Of a stretch of 56,339 bases of DNA, positions 16,688-56,339 are shown piece after piece (position 1 is the stretch's first letter; every line of letters begins with the position of its first letter). Position numbers and translations under genes: made by a program. The stretch comes from an uncultured bacterium (GTDB lineage Bacteria > Hydrothermota > UBA3072): assembly GCA_964523975.1 (NCBI GenBank), contig CAZGBM010000003.1, positions 1 through 56,339 of the forward strand. Direction: 5' to 3'. The notes under the pieces are model-generated. The model was not told the DNA's origin, made no database searches, and was given only the letters and a program-made list of their open reading frames with translations.

Positions 16688-16960
16688 CAAAATGCAAAAA
16701 TCAAATATTAAAATGAAAAATGACAAATCAAAATTTAAAAAAAATCAAACCACGAGATTCCACAAGATTAACACCAGATTTTTGGTTTCGTTTCCCCATC
16801 CCCAAAACCCATAAAATTAGCCACGGATTAACACGGATGTACACCCTTGTACGGTCGTTTCTCTCTACAGGGCAGGCAGATATGAAAAAGTTTTTTGAAT
16901 TAACTACAATAAAAGATGGTTGGGAAGGGAATCCGTGATTATCGGTGCAGATCTGTGGCT
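16688..16960. repeat. Cluster of short-tandem-repeat arms including an inverted pair
   Basis: 7-mer array caaaatg/caaaaat/caaatat (16688-16740); aaccacgagattccacaagatt (16748-16780); agccacggattaacacggat (16819-16844) inverted to atccgtgattatcggtgcagatctgtggct (16931-16960). Confidence 0.7.
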
Positions 16961-16980
16961 AATAAAAATATAGGTTTACC

Positions 16981-17418
16981 ATGAATAAAATTCTTATATT
17001 TTGTTTGGATAATATTCTCTTTGGAGTTAATATCGACCAGGTTAAGGGGCTTGGCAAATTAGGTAAAACAAAAAATTTTACCGAAAGTCCTAAATGGATT
17101 GGCGGGTTTGTAAAATACAGAGACAGTGTATTCCCGCTGGTAAAATTCTGGGAGCTACTGAATCTGGAGACACCTGAGAAGAAAGTGTTACTGCTACCTG
17201 CGGCTTTCGATTACTGTGCGTTTTTGATTTCGGGGGTTATGGGGATTTATGAACTCGAAACGGATAGAAAATCCAGCAGGGTATATTCTCTTCCTTACCT
17301 TTCGGGTTTTGGGACTTTTGAGAAAAAAATCGTACTTGAAATAGAATTGGGAAACCTGCTGACGGAAAATCAAAAGAGGACCATAAAAAAACTGAATAAA
17401 GAAAATGAAAGAAAATAA
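16981..17418 (+). CDS. Divergent CheW-like protein
   Basis: LFGVNIDQVKGL, WIGGFVKYRDSVFPLV, CAFLISGVMGI pattern of a CheW domain. Confidence 0.65.
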   Translation: MNKILIFCLDNILFGVNIDQVKGLGKLGKTKNFTESPKWIGGFVKYRDSVFPLVKFWELLNLETPEKKVLLLPAAFDYCAFLISGVMGIYELETDRKSSRVYSLPYLSGFGTFEKKIVLEIELGNLLTENQKRTIKKLNKENERK

Positions 17419-17433
17419 AAATTCATTTATATT

Positions 17434-17462
17434 AACCACAAAGTACACAGAGGAACACAAAG
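17434..17462. repeat. Orphan repeat arm
   Basis: aaccacaaag tacacagag gaacacaaag, 9-10 bp period starting with AACCAC. Confidence 0.55.
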
Positions 17463-17537
17463 AATTCGGTAACGGGGAGCCAGAAGTTAAAATTCCTAAA
17501 ACTTTGAAATTTTTGGTTTGGCAAAAGGAAATAAACT

Positions 17538-40081: not shown

Positions 40082-40515
40082 AACCACAGATTCCACAGAT
40101 TTTCACAAGATTTTTCTTTTTATTTCTAAACTTTTCGTGCCAAAATTGAGCAGCAAACCAATACGCATTCTAGTCGCTTTAAGATAATTCAGCAATTGAG
40201 CTTCATCAATCTCAGTTAAAGCCTGCGTTGCCTTTACTTCAACAATAATTTTATCCTCTATTAAAATATCAGGTATGTATTTCCTATGAATAATTAGATC
40301 TTTATAGTAAACATCAATATCTTTCTGTCTTTCGAAAGAAATATTTCTTAATTTCAACTCATGATATAAGGCCTCCTGATATACATATTCCAAAAAACCA
40401 CAACCCAATTCTCGGTGAACTTCTATTGCTGCCCCTATTATTTTCTCTGTTAAATCCCTATATAACCAATTAATATTATTTTTTTTCTGTGTTAATCTCG
40501 TGTAATCTCGTGGTT
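40082..40515. mobile_element. Putative cassette: GxxExxY gene bounded by inverted tandem-repeat arms
   Basis: Left arm aaccacagattccacagattttcacaaga (40082-40110), right arm tctgtgttaatctcgtgtaatctcgtggtt (40486-40515); interrupts wzm-wzt adjacency. Mobility is inferred, not shown. Confidence 0.55.
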
Positions 40516-40519
40516 CCAT
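40103..40519 (-). CDS. GxxExxY protein (PD-(D/E)XK nuclease superfamily)
   Basis: GFLEYVY motif, PDILIEDKIIVEVKA, AQLLNYLKAT, GLLLNFG; ATG at 40519. Confidence 0.93.
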   Translation of the reverse strand: MEPRDYTRLTQKKNNINWLYRDLTEKIIGAAIEVHRELGCGFLEYVYQEALYHELKLRNISFERQKDIDVYYKDLIIHRKYIPDILIEDKIIVEVKATQALTEIDEAQLLNYLKATRMRIGLLLNFGTKSLEIKRKIL

Positions 40520-50416: not shown

Positions 50417-50921
50417 TTTCTATTTCAGGAAGATCTCCAAGAGATTCTAAATGAAAAGTTTCCAAAAATTTACCGGTAGTACCATATAAAAAGGGATGCC
50501 CGAAACCATCTTCCTTACCTACAACCTTTATTAACCCGGCATCCTGCAGAGTGTAAATCACACCGGAACTATCCACTCCTCTAATAGCTTCTATATCTCT
50601 GCGTGTTATAGGCTGTTTGTAGGCGATTACCGCAAGTGTCGTTAAAGCAGCTCTGGACAGATACAATTCTTTTTTATCGGATAACTGTTTTATAATTTCG
50701 GCAAATTCAGGTTTTGTAAAAAGTCTATATCCCTTATTTACCTTTTTGATAACGAATGCTCTATCGGTTTCCTCGTATTCTTTTTCCAGCATAGAGACCA
50801 TTTTCTCGACAACCGCGACGGAACATCTTAAGACATCAGCCATTCTCCTCGAACTCAATGGTTCGGGAGATGCAAACAGTAAAGCCTCTACCGCTTTTTT
50901 ATTATTTCCGTCAATCTGCAT
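50349..50921 (-). CDS. scpB: SMC-Scp complex subunit ScpB
   Basis: VEALLFAS, LSRAALTTLAVIAYKQPITR..IEAIRGV, LYGTT..FL..F.L.SL.DLP; GAGG RBS before the ATG at 50921. Confidence 0.92.
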   Translation of the reverse strand: MQIDGNNKKAVEALLFASPEPLSSRRMADVLRCSVAVVEKMVSMLEKEYEETDRAFVIKKVNKGYRLFTKPEFAEIIKQLSDKKELYLSRAALTTLAVIAYKQPITRRDIEAIRGVDSSGVIYTLQDAGLIKVVGKEDGFGHPFLYGTTGKFLETFHLESLGDLPEIENEDSAFFVESRPGSPTTGSDSD

Positions 50922-52372
50922 ATTTCCTCGATTTTTAATATATAACCCATACAGAGAAAAATCAAGCCAAAAACCGCAGTTCCCGTAATAAAAGACAAAA
51001 AACAATCATGGATTCTTTGGCTATAAATAGCCGCAATAAAAGCTATAGAAGAAACCAGTATTATACGTATAAAAAATGAACGTAAATCTCTCAAGATTTT
51101 CCAATACGGTCTAACAAGCAAAATAAACTGAACCAAACCTGAAAGAGATACAGCAAGAGCCAATCCTCTGGCTTGTAAAGTATTGAGGAGGAATATGGCT
51201 AAAACAACATTGATTAAGAGAGCAATATAGCTTATTCTCATTGGAGTTTTTGTATTCTTTTGTGAAAAATATACGTTTATTATTACTTGATTACCTGAAA
51301 TAAAAGGTATTCCCAGAATATAAAAAAGAAGAATAGAAGCGGTTCGGACTGAATCCTGCAGGGTAAATGCTCCATGTTCATAGAGAATACGAATTGCGGA
51401 CATGCGGACCGTAATGAGTAAAAAAACCGAGGGAATGGAAAGGAGAAAAACAGTTCGGATAGACGACAATATATAGGGGTATTGGTCAAGTTTTTGGGCC
51501 GCTTTTCTTGAAAGTTCGGGAAGGGTAACTGCAGCAACCGCTACCCCGAACATTCCCAGGGGAAGCTGCATTACCCTGTATGCATAACTCAGATGAGAGA
51601 TGTTACCGGCGGGAAGTAAAGAAGCAAGAAAAAGAGTAACGCTCACATTTATTTTGCTGGCGGCAAAGGCAAAAAAAACAGGAATGACAAGACAAAGAGA
51701 TTGTTTTACTCCCGGGTGACCCCACTCGGGTTTCTTTAATCTTATCCCGGCTTTTGGAAGAAAGAAAAGCAAAAATATTAATTGCACTCCACCGCCGACG
51801 AGAACTCCTACGGCTGCTCCGAAGATTCCTAAATTTCTGTATAATAAAAAAGAACATATAATAACAGCAAGATTAAAGAAAACAGTATAAATTCCGGTTA
51901 TAAAAAAGCGGTCAAAATATATAAGGATACCCATAACCACAGAAGCAAATGAAATTAGCATCAAAAATGGGAACATCAATCTTGTAAGCTTGACGGCAAC
52001 TTCAAACTGTAGAGGGTCCCTGGTAAAACCTCTTGCCAGAAGCGAAACTATTTGAGGAGAGAATATAATACCCAGAGATACTATAATAGAAAGCACTATA
52101 ATCAGAGGTAAGAGAAAAGAAGACAAATATCTATTGGCACTTTCTTCTCCTTCTCTGGTGCGGTACTCCGAAAAAATCGGCACAAAAGCGGCGTTCATAC
52201 TACCTTCTCCAAAAAAGTCTCTTAAAAGATTGGGAATATTAAAGGCTATCCGGAAAGCGTCCATAAAGGCAGAAGAACCGAAAAGGTAAGCGAAAACCAC
52301 CTCTCGTCCCATTCCTGTTATTCTTGAAATTAGAGTCCCGATGCTGAATCCGCCGACTTTTTTCAATTTCAT
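50888..52372 (-). CDS. murJ: Lipid II flippase MurJ
   Basis: SRITGMGRE, DAFRIAFNIPNLLRDFFGEG, QLPLGMFG. Confidence 0.93.
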   Translation of the reverse strand: MKLKKVGGFSIGTLISRITGMGREVVFAYLFGSSAFMDAFRIAFNIPNLLRDFFGEGSMNAAFVPIFSEYRTREGEESANRYLSSFLLPLIIVLSIIVSLGIIFSPQIVSLLARGFTRDPLQFEVAVKLTRLMFPFLMLISFASVVMGILIYFDRFFITGIYTVFFNLAVIICSFLLYRNLGIFGAAVGVLVGGGVQLIFLLFFLPKAGIRLKKPEWGHPGVKQSLCLVIPVFFAFAASKINVSVTLFLASLLPAGNISHLSYAYRVMQLPLGMFGVAVAAVTLPELSRKAAQKLDQYPYILSSIRTVFLLSIPSVFLLITVRMSAIRILYEHGAFTLQDSVRTASILLFYILGIPFISGNQVIINVYFSQKNTKTPMRISYIALLINVVLAIFLLNTLQARGLALAVSLSGLVQFILLVRPYWKILRDLRSFFIRIILVSSIAFIAAIYSQRIHDCFLSFITGTAVFGLIFLCMGYILKIEEICRLTEIIKKR

Positions 52373-52382
52373 AGAACTAAAG

Positions 52383-52858
52383 GGATCAAGGGGTCAAGGG
52401 TTCGAGGGTTCAAGGGTTAGAATCCTTTTTCTCCAGAGATTTAATAAGAGCCTTCAGCATCCTCTCAACTTCCCTTGCGTTTTCCAGAAGCTTATCTTTG
52501 TTTTCTTGAGTCATATAATCTAAATCATACGATAAAAGAAGTTGAGTTTTCAATTCGCAATACGAACCATAAGCTACATACAGAAACCTTATATACTCTT
52601 TAATTGTTCCTCTCCCATAACCTTCTGCAATATTAGAAGGAATAGAAATAGATGAACGCCTTATTTGAGAAGTTAAACAGTATGTTTCTTCTTTGGGAAA
52701 ACTACTGGTTACTTTATAAATACTAATACATAATTTATATGCTTTTTGCCATACTTTTAAGTCCATATAATTCTTCAACATAATATGCCAGAACTTTGAA
52801 TCTTTAAAATTTTCTTGAAGCTTTCTTCCTCGACCCCTCGACTCCTTGGTCCCTTAAC
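52383..52858. mobile_element. Putative cassette: four-helix-bundle gene bounded by inverted 8-bp tandem-repeat arms
   Basis: ggatcaag gggtcaag ggttcgag ggttcaag (52383-52414) vs cctcgacc cctcgact ccttggtc ccttaac (52828-52858). Mobility is inferred. Confidence 0.55.
52410..52781 (-). CDS. Four helix bundle protein (23S rRNA IVP / TIGR02436-like family)
   Basis: DLKVWQKA, FPKEETYCLTSQIRRSSISIPSNIAEGYGR, GSYCELKTQL. Confidence 0.93.
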   Translation of the reverse strand: MLKNYMDLKVWQKAYKLCISIYKVTSSFPKEETYCLTSQIRRSSISIPSNIAEGYGRGTIKEYIRFLYVAYGSYCELKTQLLLSYDLDYMTQENKDKLLENAREVERMLKALIKSLEKKDSNP

Positions 52859-52903
52859 TTTCTTCTTCCTAACTTGGGATGTGGTAATGTTGGAAGGGTA
52901 GTA

Positions 52904-52978
52904 TCGGGGCGAGTGGATTCGAACCACCGACCTCCTGCTCCCGAAGCAGGCGCGCTAACCAGGCTGCGCTACGCCCCG
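52904..52978 (-). tRNA. tRNA-Pro(CGG), CCA not encoded
   Basis: CGGGGCG/CGCCCCG acceptor stem, anticodon arm CCTGC-TTCGGGA-GCAGG, T-loop GGTTCGAATCC. Confidence 0.96.
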
Positions 52979-53589
52979 TTTTGCCATCCTTTTTTCCCTT
53001 TAAGAGGCACAAATCTTACACCTATACTTTTACTTTTAACTATCTTCCCGGCTTCTTTTTTTAGAACAACGAGCTCTTGAGTAATTATATTGCCAACCGG
53101 TATCACAATCTTTCCTTTATCTGCCAGTTGCTCTATTATATCATCCGCTACATAAGGAGCGGCGGCTGTGACTATAATCCTGTCATAGGGAGCATATTCC
53201 TTGTAGCCTATACTCCCATCTGCCATTACTACAGTTATATTATTATAACCCAATTTACGCAAGGTCTCTTTTGCTTTTTTAAAAAGTTCCGGAATTCTTT
53301 CCACTGTGATGACACTCATTGCAAGGCGTGAAATTACCGCGGCCTGATAACCGCTGCCCGTTCCCACTTCAAGGACTTTATGTTCATTCGATACGTCTAA
53401 GAGGTCCGTCATTAATGCGACAATATATGGCTGAGAAATCGTCTGGTCCGAACCGATTGGGAGCGGGCCATCCTGATATGCTACACCTTTTAGACCCTCT
53501 TCGACGAATCTATGTCTGGGGACTTCTTTCATTGCTGTAAGAATTCTTTCGTCGGTAATACCTCTACTTCTTATTTGATTTTCTACCAT
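52969..53589 (-). CDS. pcm: Protein-L-isoaspartate O-methyltransferase
   Basis: VPRHRFV, QTISQPYIVA, VLEVGTGSGYQAA, PYDRIIVTAA, RFVPL. Confidence 0.95.
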   Translation of the reverse strand: MVENQIRSRGITDERILTAMKEVPRHRFVEEGLKGVAYQDGPLPIGSDQTISQPYIVALMTDLLDVSNEHKVLEVGTGSGYQAAVISRLAMSVITVERIPELFKKAKETLRKLGYNNITVVMADGSIGYKEYAPYDRIIVTAAAPYVADDIIEQLADKGKIVIPVGNIITQELVVLKKEAGKIVKSKSIGVRFVPLKGKKGWQNGA

Positions 53590-55891: not shown

Positions 55892-55966
55892 TCGGGGCGA
55901 GTGGACTTGAACCACCGACCTCCAGCACCCCAAGCTGGCGCGCTAACCAGGCTGCGCTACGCCCCG
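55892..55966 (-). tRNA. tRNA-Pro(GGG), CCA not encoded
   Basis: Same body as the CGG tRNA; anticodon arm CCAGC-TTGGGGT-GCTGG; T-loop GGTTCAAGTCC. Confidence 0.96.
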
Positions 55967-56014: not shown

Positions 56015-56339
56015 ATGGCAACCACGAGATTACGAAGATTACCAAAAGACTACCCCACGACACCAAAAATTAATATCACACAGAGGCACCCGATACGGTC
56101 ATTCTTTCCTACGGGGCAGGTCCAGTGGAATAGAAGTTGCTGCATGATGTACTACTATTCCACAGGGCAGGCAGAGAACACAGAGAAAAAAATATAGTGT
56201 TGCTTAAAACCCATCCCACAACACCAAATTAATCTCACAAAAAGCCACAGAGACACAAAGAAAAAACTTTTTTATTTTACCAATTAACTAATATAATAAT
56301 TAACCAATCAACTGATTAGAAGAATTCACGAATTCAAAT
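56015..56339. repeat. Cluster of degenerate repeat arms
   Basis: atggcaaccacgagattac (near-identical to the GxxExxY 5' end), cagggcaggcaga (also at 16868-16880), agccacagagacacaaag, 8-mer ccaattaa/ccaatcaa array. Confidence 0.6.

Follow-up and report, generated by a model that had tools for sequence, protein, structure and literature searches.

What is a 123-amino-acid (aa) open reading frame (ORF), bounded by two mutually inverted arrays of an 8-nucleotide (nt) repeat, doing in an operon between a tRNA gene and murJ? The locus lies in contig CAZGBM010000003.1 (assembly GCA_964523975.1) of an uncultured bacterium, where pcm, tRNA-Pro(CGG), the 123-aa ORF and murJ follow one another on the minus strand. 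The whole stretch analysed, a 56-kb piece of contig (56,339 nt) covering only part of the host genome, is referred to as the window; its DNA was found in salt-marsh sediment metagenomes, and MurJ homologues at 62-72% identity were named candidate division WOR-3. Judged from sequence comparisons, the ORF and its arrays appear to form a cassette of the rRNA-intervening-sequence type located outside rRNA, and to be an instance of an undescribed class; a search of the full-text literature returned no description of array-flanked cassettes for the protein family concerned (PF05635/TIGR02436).

Both arms of the cassette are built on the 8-mer [A/G]AGG[G/A][G/T]TC, the two arrays being inverted relative to each other. 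A first-pass annotation, made from the letters alone, had reported four copies of GGNTCRAG over the stop codon, and these proved exact and in phase on the plus strand at 52383-52414 (GGATCAAG GGGTCAAG GGTTCGAG GGTTCAAG), followed by a degenerate fifth. Tandem Repeats Finder (TRF) placed this 3′ array at 52380-52418 (period 8, 4.9 copies, score 57); it overlaps the ORF stop codon TGA (52412-52410), and the arm ends 2 nt before the murJ ATG. Four reverse-complement copies had likewise been reported about 45 nt before the ORF's ATG, which was right for the position (46 nt) and too high for the count: the 5′ array on the minus strand at 52855-52828 reads AAGGGACC AAGGAGTC GAGGGGTC GAGG, about 3.5 units, of which one (52829-52836) fits the GGNTCRAG pattern exactly and two fit it with one mismatch, the rest being a partial unit. 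GGNTCRAG occurs 16 times in the 56 kb (about 10 expected), four in-phase copies being present at the 3′ array only, and the window holds a single cassette with arrays of this unit type.

Each arm measures 33 nt, and the two are 82% complementary (52375-52407 / 52828-52860), giving a cassette of about 486 nt from arm to arm. Their Smith-Waterman score of 36 (z = 8.6 against shuffles) exceeded the 99th percentile of 90 control genes (35.4), the predicted two-arm duplex was markedly more stable than that of shuffled arms (−47 kcal/mol versus −26 ± 3.7 kcal/mol), and the minimum-free-energy structure predicted for the complete 541-nt RNA has the arms paired. Across 52200-53100, Rfam at E ≤ 1 returned the tRNA only and no known RNA family in the arms. 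The tRNA-Pro 3′ end is at 52904 and the inverted repeat starts 44 nt further, in agreement with the earlier placement of the element about 45 nt downstream of a tRNA 3′ end, between tRNA-Pro and murJ.

The same packaging was observed across the protein family. We fetched 80 further loci, with homologues at 46-67% identity, from Desulfobacterota, Nitrospirota, Planctomycetota, Bacteroidota, Acidobacteriota, Elusimicrobiota, WOR-3, KSB1 and Ignavibacteria, and scored their arms by aligning the 160-nt upstream flank to the reverse complement of the downstream flank, using simple ORF calls and fixed flanks. The statistics refer to 80 non-redundant cassette places from at least 8 phyla; these comprise the fetched loci together with the window and loci collected before, after removal of duplicates and of places without a flank. 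Arms were detected at z ≥ 5 in 62/80 places and at z ≥ 3 in 71/80, and 68 of the 80 (85%) scored higher than the 95th percentile of a control set, 90 genes taken from these loci (Mann-Whitney P = 1e-24). TRF found an array of period 6-11, mostly 7 or 8, beside 77 of the 80 places, 54 of which had one on each side; the period of the 5′ array was 8 in 47 loci and 7 in 16, the median copy numbers were 3.8 (5′) and 4.15 (3′), and the median arm measured 32.5 nt at 85% complementarity. The 5′ arm abutted the ATG, with its last unit within 15 nt, in 26/62 loci, and the 3′ arm overlapped the stop codon in 25/62.

The repeat unit tracked the protein clade and not the host phylum. The window-type unit [A/G]AGG[G/A][G/T]TC was present in every relative of at least 55% identity, whatever its phylum, and the units CAAAGGCA / AAAGGTTC were found in Bacteroidota and some Planctomycetota cassettes, while other clades used GGGACTA, GGCAATT, GGCATTC or AGGGTGT. 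On the sense strand the upstream unit was richer in G than in C in 46/67 cases and richer in C in 3/67, with an AGG core in most clades. A 68%-identical relative (L005-L013) sits between an HhH-GPD gene and a PF01171 gene, with the window-type unit on both sides. On these comparisons the gene and its arms travel as a unit between unrelated loci and phyla. Host reading frames can run into the arrays: at L005 1962-1999 the cassette 5′ arm encodes the last 12 codons of the upstream HhH-GPD family glycosylase gene (ending in KGFEGSRVQGVK and the stop). The sense 5′ unit AAGGGTTC is free of stop codons, whereas the 3′ unit CTTGAACC gives TGA in every frame within three units. The nearness of the window cassette to a tRNA is incidental, because none of 60 other loci has a tRNA beside the cassette; tRNA adjacency as a general rule was therefore rejected.

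At the tRNA-Pro/murJ junction itself, relatives were compared on contigs with surE-pcm-tRNA-Pro-murJ-scpB-rluB synteny. The cassette was present in L001/L002 (a pair also found as MurJ P0122, 91%), L004 (MurJ 90%) and L119 (MurJ 70%), as well as in L003, a short Logan contig with an L001-type gene and a cut upstream flank; the gene was absent from the syntenic relatives L094 (MurJ 80%), L115/L116 (75%), L117/L118 (73%) and L120 (72%), so that the cassette occurs in four relative lineages and is missing from four. The gene-less spacers are not empty, and no clean empty site was found among these cassette-free relatives: they hold arrays of a CCACAGAT / CACAAGATT / CACAGAG motif, which is also the array type around the second cassette of the window (described below). 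In L120 and L115 these other-type arrays form an inverted pair with no gene between, a complementary array lying just before murJ. The CCACAGAT-type arrays begin at most a few nt beyond the 3′ end of the tRNA (L094 2275-2500, L115 1132-1500, L117 1243-1500, L120 1316-1500), and the spot directly after tRNA-Pro seems to collect array elements. As the spacer holds the cassette or other arrays depending on the lineage, the junction is a variable spot, and the cassette occupies its sites polymorphically. The first-pass annotation had named two findings that would tell against it, namely that other family members in the host genome lack such arms and that the junction is identical in relatives; with arms at 85% of the 80 places, which apart from the window lie in other genomes, and with a junction that differs among relatives, both turned out otherwise.

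Where the cassette is present, its arms have been kept. Between the window and L119, for which dS is about 1.6 and synonymous sites are saturated, 27/31 positions of the 5′ arm core and 33/36 of the 3′ arm core are identical (both counted by eye; 87-92%), against 61% identity in the arm-to-ATG spacer, 14/27 (52%) at fourfold-degenerate sites and 29% in the tRNA-to-arm spacer. The arms are therefore under purifying selection, kept far beyond neutral sites, and the cassette appears long resident at this site; the 3′ junction with murJ is the same in all carriers. In close relatives, alignments show the arms changing by whole-unit and block indels: L001, L002 and L004 (3373-3440) have about 30-40 extra nt between stop codon and 3′ array compared with window 52375-52412, and the number of units differs. 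In carriers the distance from the end of the C-rich 3′ arm to the start codon of murJ is 2-10 nt, which leaves no purine-rich ribosome-binding tract (CCCTTTAGTTCTATG; window 52373-52390); cassette-free relatives have AAGGTAAA(C/T)AGATTATG before murJ (L094 2480-2502, L115 1480-1502).

The encoded protein belongs to the 23S rRNA intervening-sequence family, as had been proposed, with scores well above the cut-offs of TIGR02436 (137.4 bits versus 24, E = 2e-40) and PF05635 (138.8 versus 33.8, E = 1e-40) and above that of NF008911 (146.4 versus 137). By sequence it matches PDB entry 2GSC (XCC0516; E = 4e-20) and also 2RLD (BT_0352). The AlphaFold2 monomer model (predicted local distance difference test, pLDDT, 94.3) has four helices, and Foldseek aligned it to 2GSC with a template-modelling (TM) score of 0.85-0.90 and a root-mean-square deviation of 0.7, to 2RLD with a TM score of 0.76-0.89, and to Avd of diversity-generating retroelements (DGRs; 8UB7/4DWL) with a TM score of 0.73-0.86 at 14% identity, which bears out the structural kinship with Avd suggested earlier. 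Matches to the Avd models stayed below the curated cut-offs (NF033474, 30 bits versus 80, E = 5e-7; PF22296, 36.7 versus 40, E = 7e-9); the protein is a distant structural relative of Avd and not itself a DGR Avd. It is basic (isoelectric point, pI, 9.0), and it carries the R..S..N..E polar cluster that is invariant in the family alignment and matches a published motif (PMC3936711). The solved homologue structures have five chains per entry, and XCC0516 is described, in the title of a reference listed in PMC10053308, as assembled from five four-helix bundles. Among orthologues at the tRNA-Pro/murJ site the ratio of nonsynonymous to synonymous substitution rates (dN/dS) was 0.05-0.18, with a value of 0.42 in the closest pair, where few sites differ; given the low values, the ORF is under purifying selection and the protein functional. 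The window query alone retrieved 6183 clusters at E ≤ 1e-10.

A second kind of array-flanked cassette is present in the window, at 40084-40519 on the minus strand. Its cargo is a GxxExxY gene (TIGR04256, E = 1.5e-45) of a PD-(D/E)XK-type nuclease family, and it separates the permease gene of an ABC transporter (41364-40522) from the corresponding ATPase gene (40077-38833), co-oriented with the operon. Its inverted arrays, CACGAGATTA x2 (5′) and AATCTGTGG x2-3 (3′), are built on the unit CCACAGATT / CACGAGATTA of 9-10 nt and score 29 against 15.3 ± 2.5 for shuffles, so the packaging matches that of the four-helix-bundle cassette with a different repeat unit, as the first-pass annotation had noted. 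The two are alike in being a small co-oriented ORF within an operon between inverted tandem arrays, and they differ in protein family, in repeat unit and in that the GxxExxY cassette has the C/A-rich strand upstream. The annotated N-terminal 21 aa of the GxxExxY protein are the translation of its 5′ arm.

Arrays without a gene were also found. In the window, CCACRRAT/CACAGAG arrays lie gene-less or solo in intergenic positions on the plus strand (16750-16779, 16816-16963, 17430-17466, 56246-56260); the pair at 16816-16963, with 23-nt arms (ATTAGCCACGGATTAACACGGAT and its complement, 78%) around 102 nt only, resembles a cargo-less miniature cassette. The arrays at 16750-17466 lie between plus-strand ORFs and therefore share the sense of the flanking genes. 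In the fetched loci TRF pairing gave numerous inverted array pairs that enclose no gene, with arms 56-180 nt apart, several of which share their unit with a four-helix-bundle cassette a few kb away (L019 4550-4748, L051 98-229, L055 53-187 and two in L065), several arrays of one unit occurring within 5 kb in L019 and L065; the four-helix-bundle cassette thus has gene-less derivatives. A GxxExxY search in viral contigs gave no match and the 590 kb of fetched loci contain no further GxxExxY gene, so the generality of a second cargo rests on one cassette and the gene-less arrays.

The features of the four-helix-bundle locus are collected in the table. The last 10 nt of pcm overlap the first 10 nt of tRNA-Pro(CGG) (52969-52978), and this tRNA is embedded in an mRNA operon, the scan of the locus giving no terminator-like site nearby; a second tRNA-Pro (GGG) is at 55892-55966, upstream of a lipid A acyltransferase gene. 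The unit GGTTCRAG resembles the tRNA T-loop sequence GGTTCRAAT (also at 55906-55913), and the 3′ array (52375-52418) is 75% complementary over 24 nt to tRNA-Pro itself (52919-52942, pair I3); this resemblance is probably a coincidence, because other clades use unrelated units.

Table. Features of the four-helix-bundle cassette and its neighbours, in minus-strand order (window coordinates).
Feature	Position	Strand	Basis or remark
pcm (protein-L-isoaspartate O-methyltransferase), upstream host gene	52969..53589	-	NCBIfam NF001453, 250 bits, above cut-off
tRNA-Pro (anticodon CGG)	52904..52978	-	ARAGORN; Rfam RF00005, 65.8 bits
Variable spacer, tRNA to 5′ arm	52861..52903	-	43 nt versus 104 nt in L119, 29% identity
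5′ arm, G-rich sense array, AAGTT + AAGGGACC AAGGAGTC GAGGGGTC GAGG, ~3.5 8-nt units	52827..52860	-	Inverted repeat I1; TRF 52828-52846, period 8
45-nt spacer, 5′ arm to ATG	52782..52826	-	61% identity to L119
Four-helix-bundle gene, 123 aa, 23S rRNA intervening-sequence protein family	52410..52781	-	ORF and profile matches
3′ arm, C-rich sense array, CCTTGAAC CCTCGAAC CCTTGACC CCTTGATC CCTT + TAGTT, ~5 units	52375..52418	-	TRF 52380-52418; inverted repeat I1
murJ (lipid II flippase), downstream host gene	50888..52372	-	TIGR01695, 368 bits

How could such a unit work in an operon? The account we favour, which we consider about as probable as its negation, is a promoter-less insertable cassette of the 23S rRNA-intervening-sequence kind, placed in the spacer of a surE-pcm-tRNA-Pro-murJ operon, with arms that would be processed as RNA and would probably also serve as DNA ends. 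The cassette would be transcribed by read-through from the host operon. Since pairing is possible between any unit of the 5′ arm and any unit of the 3′ arm, the transcript would fold in any register into an imperfect duplex of about 28-33 bp (predicted at −47 kcal/mol) with the ORF in the loop; RNase III would cut this duplex, by analogy with the Coxiella and Leptospira intervening sequences, and the cut would release tRNA, cassette mRNA and murJ mRNA from one another, making insertion tolerable within operons and even within rRNA. A promoter of the cassette's own was not supported: the promoter scan of the locus gave 3 promoter-like sites where 3.7 are expected, the sole spacer site overlapping the ATG. 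The same scan region contains no terminator-like site, and together with the 5′ arm abutting the ATG in 26/62 loci, where a promoter would find no space, this fits a promoter-less cassette read through from the operon.

The model for RNA processing is the 23S intervening sequence. Cleavage by RNase III is reported for intervening sequences in Salmonella, Leptospira and Coxiella; those of Leptospira and Coxiella carry an ORF of the PF05635/TIGR02436 family, and the Coxiella element, considered selfish and horizontally acquired, is shown with its ORF in the loop of a 28-bp stem (PMC4990558). The window cassette shares with the 23S intervening sequences of Leptospira and Coxiella burnetii (S23p) the protein family, and with the Coxiella element a similar size (about 486 nt versus 428-444 nt; PMC4990558) and the position of the ORF in the loop of a terminal-inverted-repeat stem, 28 bp in Coxiella and a predicted fold here. 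It differs in lying in a tRNA-mRNA spacer and not in helix 25 or 45 of a 23S rRNA gene, in having arms of 8-nt arrays that are about 82% complementary instead of a near-perfect unique stem, and in an ORF that is under purifying selection where that of Coxiella is reported as decaying and not expressed (PMC4990558). By this analogy, excision at the RNA level is plausible. The earlier label of an intervening-sequence-like element thus stood as regards architecture and protein family; two tests for selection on RNA pairing were negative.

Those two tests head the observations that weigh against the account we favour. Mismatches between arms across loci were strand-symmetric (71 G.U-type versus 72 A.C-type), and shuffling the order of units within arms, a test of modest per-locus power with about four units per arm, showed observed complementarity to be no better than shuffled (mean z −0.07; P ≤ 0.05 in 0/34 loci); therefore a hairpin is possible but carries no signature of base-pair selection. 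The antisense duplex is predicted to be as stable as the sense one (−50.7 versus −47.4 kcal/mol), the arms across loci are only about 85% complementary compared with the near-perfect Coxiella stem, and in L004 the two arms have drifted to about 61% complementarity (hand count) with a poor arm score, each keeping the motif. Cassettes were co-oriented with both neighbours in 51/70 cases (73%) versus 54% of control gene triplets (P = 0.02), which speaks for the favoured account, but the excess is modest and based on crude ORF calls. Nor was there direct support for mobility: no excision or inversion joint was found in the contigs of four salt-marsh DNA runs (X1-X4), contigs that drop rare variants; neither the window ORFs nor the neighbouring genes include a transposase or integrase in or next to the cassette; and no direct repeat indicating a target-site duplication was seen outside the arms by eye, no systematic search having been made. 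What is conserved is the motif, its periodicity and the opposite orientation of the arrays, and not particular base pairs, a result that fits two readings: a register-tolerant duplex, with units free to pair in any combination, or arrays of binding sites. In RNA runs 4% of words were recovered at the window locus (contigs only), and contigs from wastewater and freshwater RNA runs covered a Flavobacterium cassette too thinly for ends to be seen.

The second of these readings places the function of the arms at the DNA level only, which we regard as possible though somewhat doubtful. The arms would be inverted binding-site arrays, about four per end, like Tn7/Mu subterminal sites or plant transposon ends, marking the ends of a mobile or once-mobile element; the binder would be a multimer, either the encoded, probably pentameric four-helix-bundle protein or a host recombinase, and the RNA hairpin would be a by-product. 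Such an account is favoured by a motif and orientation conserved without pair-specific covariation, by the strand symmetry of arm mismatches, by the MITE-like (miniature inverted-repeat transposable element) gene-less pairs that share the local cassette unit in L019, L051, L055 and L065, by a unit type that follows protein clade across host phyla, and by polymorphic site occupancy. The presence of about four units per arm beside homologue structures of five chains, with XCC0516 titled as five four-helix bundles in the reference cited by PMC10053308, the binding of nucleic acid by Avd in the DGR ribonucleoprotein (8UB7) and the basic pI of 9.0 point the same way. Yet the cassette encodes no catalytic domain and has no transposase or integrase nearby, neither a target-site duplication (by eye) nor an excision joint (in metagenome contigs) was seen, co-orientation with host genes is enriched, and the arms are intact although the cassette seems to have been resident to a dS of about 1.6, which would be unexpected for the ends of an immobile copy. 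A bolder version, which we think unlikely, makes the four-helix-bundle protein the specificity factor of an unrecognised mobile-element family without a transposase, a probably pentameric ring reading about 4-5 units per end on DNA or transcript. Were it true, each protein clade would have co-evolved with its own unit, gene-less pairs would be non-autonomous derivatives, the ORF-bearing 23S intervening sequences and the associations with cas loci discussed below would be insertions of such elements, and GxxExxY cassettes would be a parallel system with nuclease cargo.

Cis-regulation of the cassette's own expression is quite improbable in our view, even though the AGGAG/AGGGG of the 5′ array resembles a Shine-Dalgarno (SD) sequence and the CCUC/CCUU of the 3′ array an anti-SD sequence, so that pairing, or binding by the encoded protein, could tune translation. 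The AGG core and G excess of the 5′ units would suit this, as would a last unit close enough to the ATG in 26/62 loci to serve as ribosome-binding site and a 3′ arm that overlaps the stop codon in 25/62; but in the window the 5′ arm ends 46 nt from the ATG and the 45-nt spacer contains no SD-like tract, gene-less array pairs have nothing to regulate, and the same architecture is carried by Bacteroidota, which are largely without SD-led initiation. Three further explanations are, even taken together, very improbable. An invertible phase-variable segment with the inverted repeats as invertase crossover sites has the typical geometry on its side (repeats of about 30 nt around a segment of about 420 nt) and is nevertheless most unlikely, given that the segment is a whole ORF and not a promoter, its orientation is biased to that of its neighbours, no invertase adjoins it, and contigs of the four metagenome runs holding the locus contain no strand-changing joint. 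A remnant or accessory (Avd) gene of a DGR is more improbable still: the Avd-model matches and the fold similarity speak for it, whereas both scores fall below the curated cut-offs, the best structural matches, XCC0516 and BT_0352, are not DGR proteins, the neighbours here and in relatives are pcm, tRNA-Pro, murJ and scpB with no adjoining reverse transcriptase, and general repeat scans of the locus and window, no dedicated search having been made, gave no template or variable repeats. Chance low-complexity sequence or an assembly artefact, for which only the short unit length speaks, is scarcely credible at z = 8.6 against shuffles and with a unit that recurs at unrelated loci; an artefact of assembly is refuted by contigs L001, L002, L004 and L119, independently assembled from other samples, which show the same arms, and in run X1 one contig spans the whole cassette without differences.

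The cassette was also compared with other known systems. Correia/NEMIS elements of Neisseria are MITEs whose inverted repeats are cut by RNase III. Like them, the present elements are short, bounded by inverted repeats, located in operon spacers and presumably co-transcribed, the gene-less pairs resembling them in particular; they differ in having arms of tandem 7-8-nt arrays, in that many copies carry a gene and in having no known partner transposase. Of the hallmarks of MITEs, both terminal inverted repeats and presence/absence polymorphism at orthologous sites were found. Avd (bAvd; 4DWL, 8UB7) shares the basic four-helix bundle (TM score 0.73-0.86) and, with the solved homologues, five chains per entry, and it is set apart by about 14% identity, by scores under both model cut-offs and by the lack of a linked reverse transcriptase in the window cassette. 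The short tandemly repeated repetitive (STRR) heptamers of heterocystous cyanobacteria are tandem 7-nt intergenic units, described as repeats and not as paired inverted cassette arms. Cyanobacterial plasmid copies of the present gene family are flanked by such heptamer arrays, whereas the window unit has 8 nt and its host belongs to WOR-3; no link of STRR to PF05635/TIGR02436 was found in the searchable literature.

Arrays, mostly heptamers, were present beside the copies on cyanobacterial plasmids and on IMG/VR contigs, the plasmid copies having TTAGCTG / AGCTAAA in Calothrix and CTCTGCC in Nostoc PCC 7120. On a Pseudanabaena galeata plasmid (L124 980-1700) the gene lies between cas6 and cas4, with heptamers AAAAGCT x14 upstream and AAAAGCC x9 downstream; this locus is atypical in that the arrays are in direct orientation, a further inverted array lying upstream. 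23S_rRNA_IVP genes have been reported as "associated" with cas loci (PMC3936711, PMC10910872), and these published associations may be insertions of such cassettes. In the salt-marsh metagenomes X1-X4, contig depth, otherwise about 15 or less, reached 47-123 over the 3′ array alone (52359-52409), a 3- to 8-fold or greater increase, and the array is therefore present in many other contigs: AAGGGTTC-type arrays are multi-copy in this community. Apart from this depth spike, the only joints seen in the X1-X4 contigs came from paralogues. Many homologues are on contigs under 2 kb, which suggests that arrays break assemblies.

Collectively, the findings suggest an insertable gene cassette of a kind not described before and widespread across many bacterial phyla. 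PF05635/TIGR02436 has been known mainly as the ORF of 23S rRNA intervening sequences and is the closest non-DGR relative of Avd; what is new is that its gene is normally packaged between inverted arrays of a clade-specific 7-8-nt motif, that the package is polymorphic at orthologous sites, and that gene-less and other-cargo versions exist. The rRNA intervening sequences would thereby be reframed as a special case of a general cassette, and insertion would offer a simple explanation for the published CRISPR-cas associations. The arrays may also account for part of the short tandem intergenic repeats in many phyla and for the frequent contig breaks at these genes, and their signature could serve for annotating cassette boundaries. 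The family itself gains a concrete hypothesis, namely that its arms may be processed by RNase III, that its arrays may be bound by the protein, or both.

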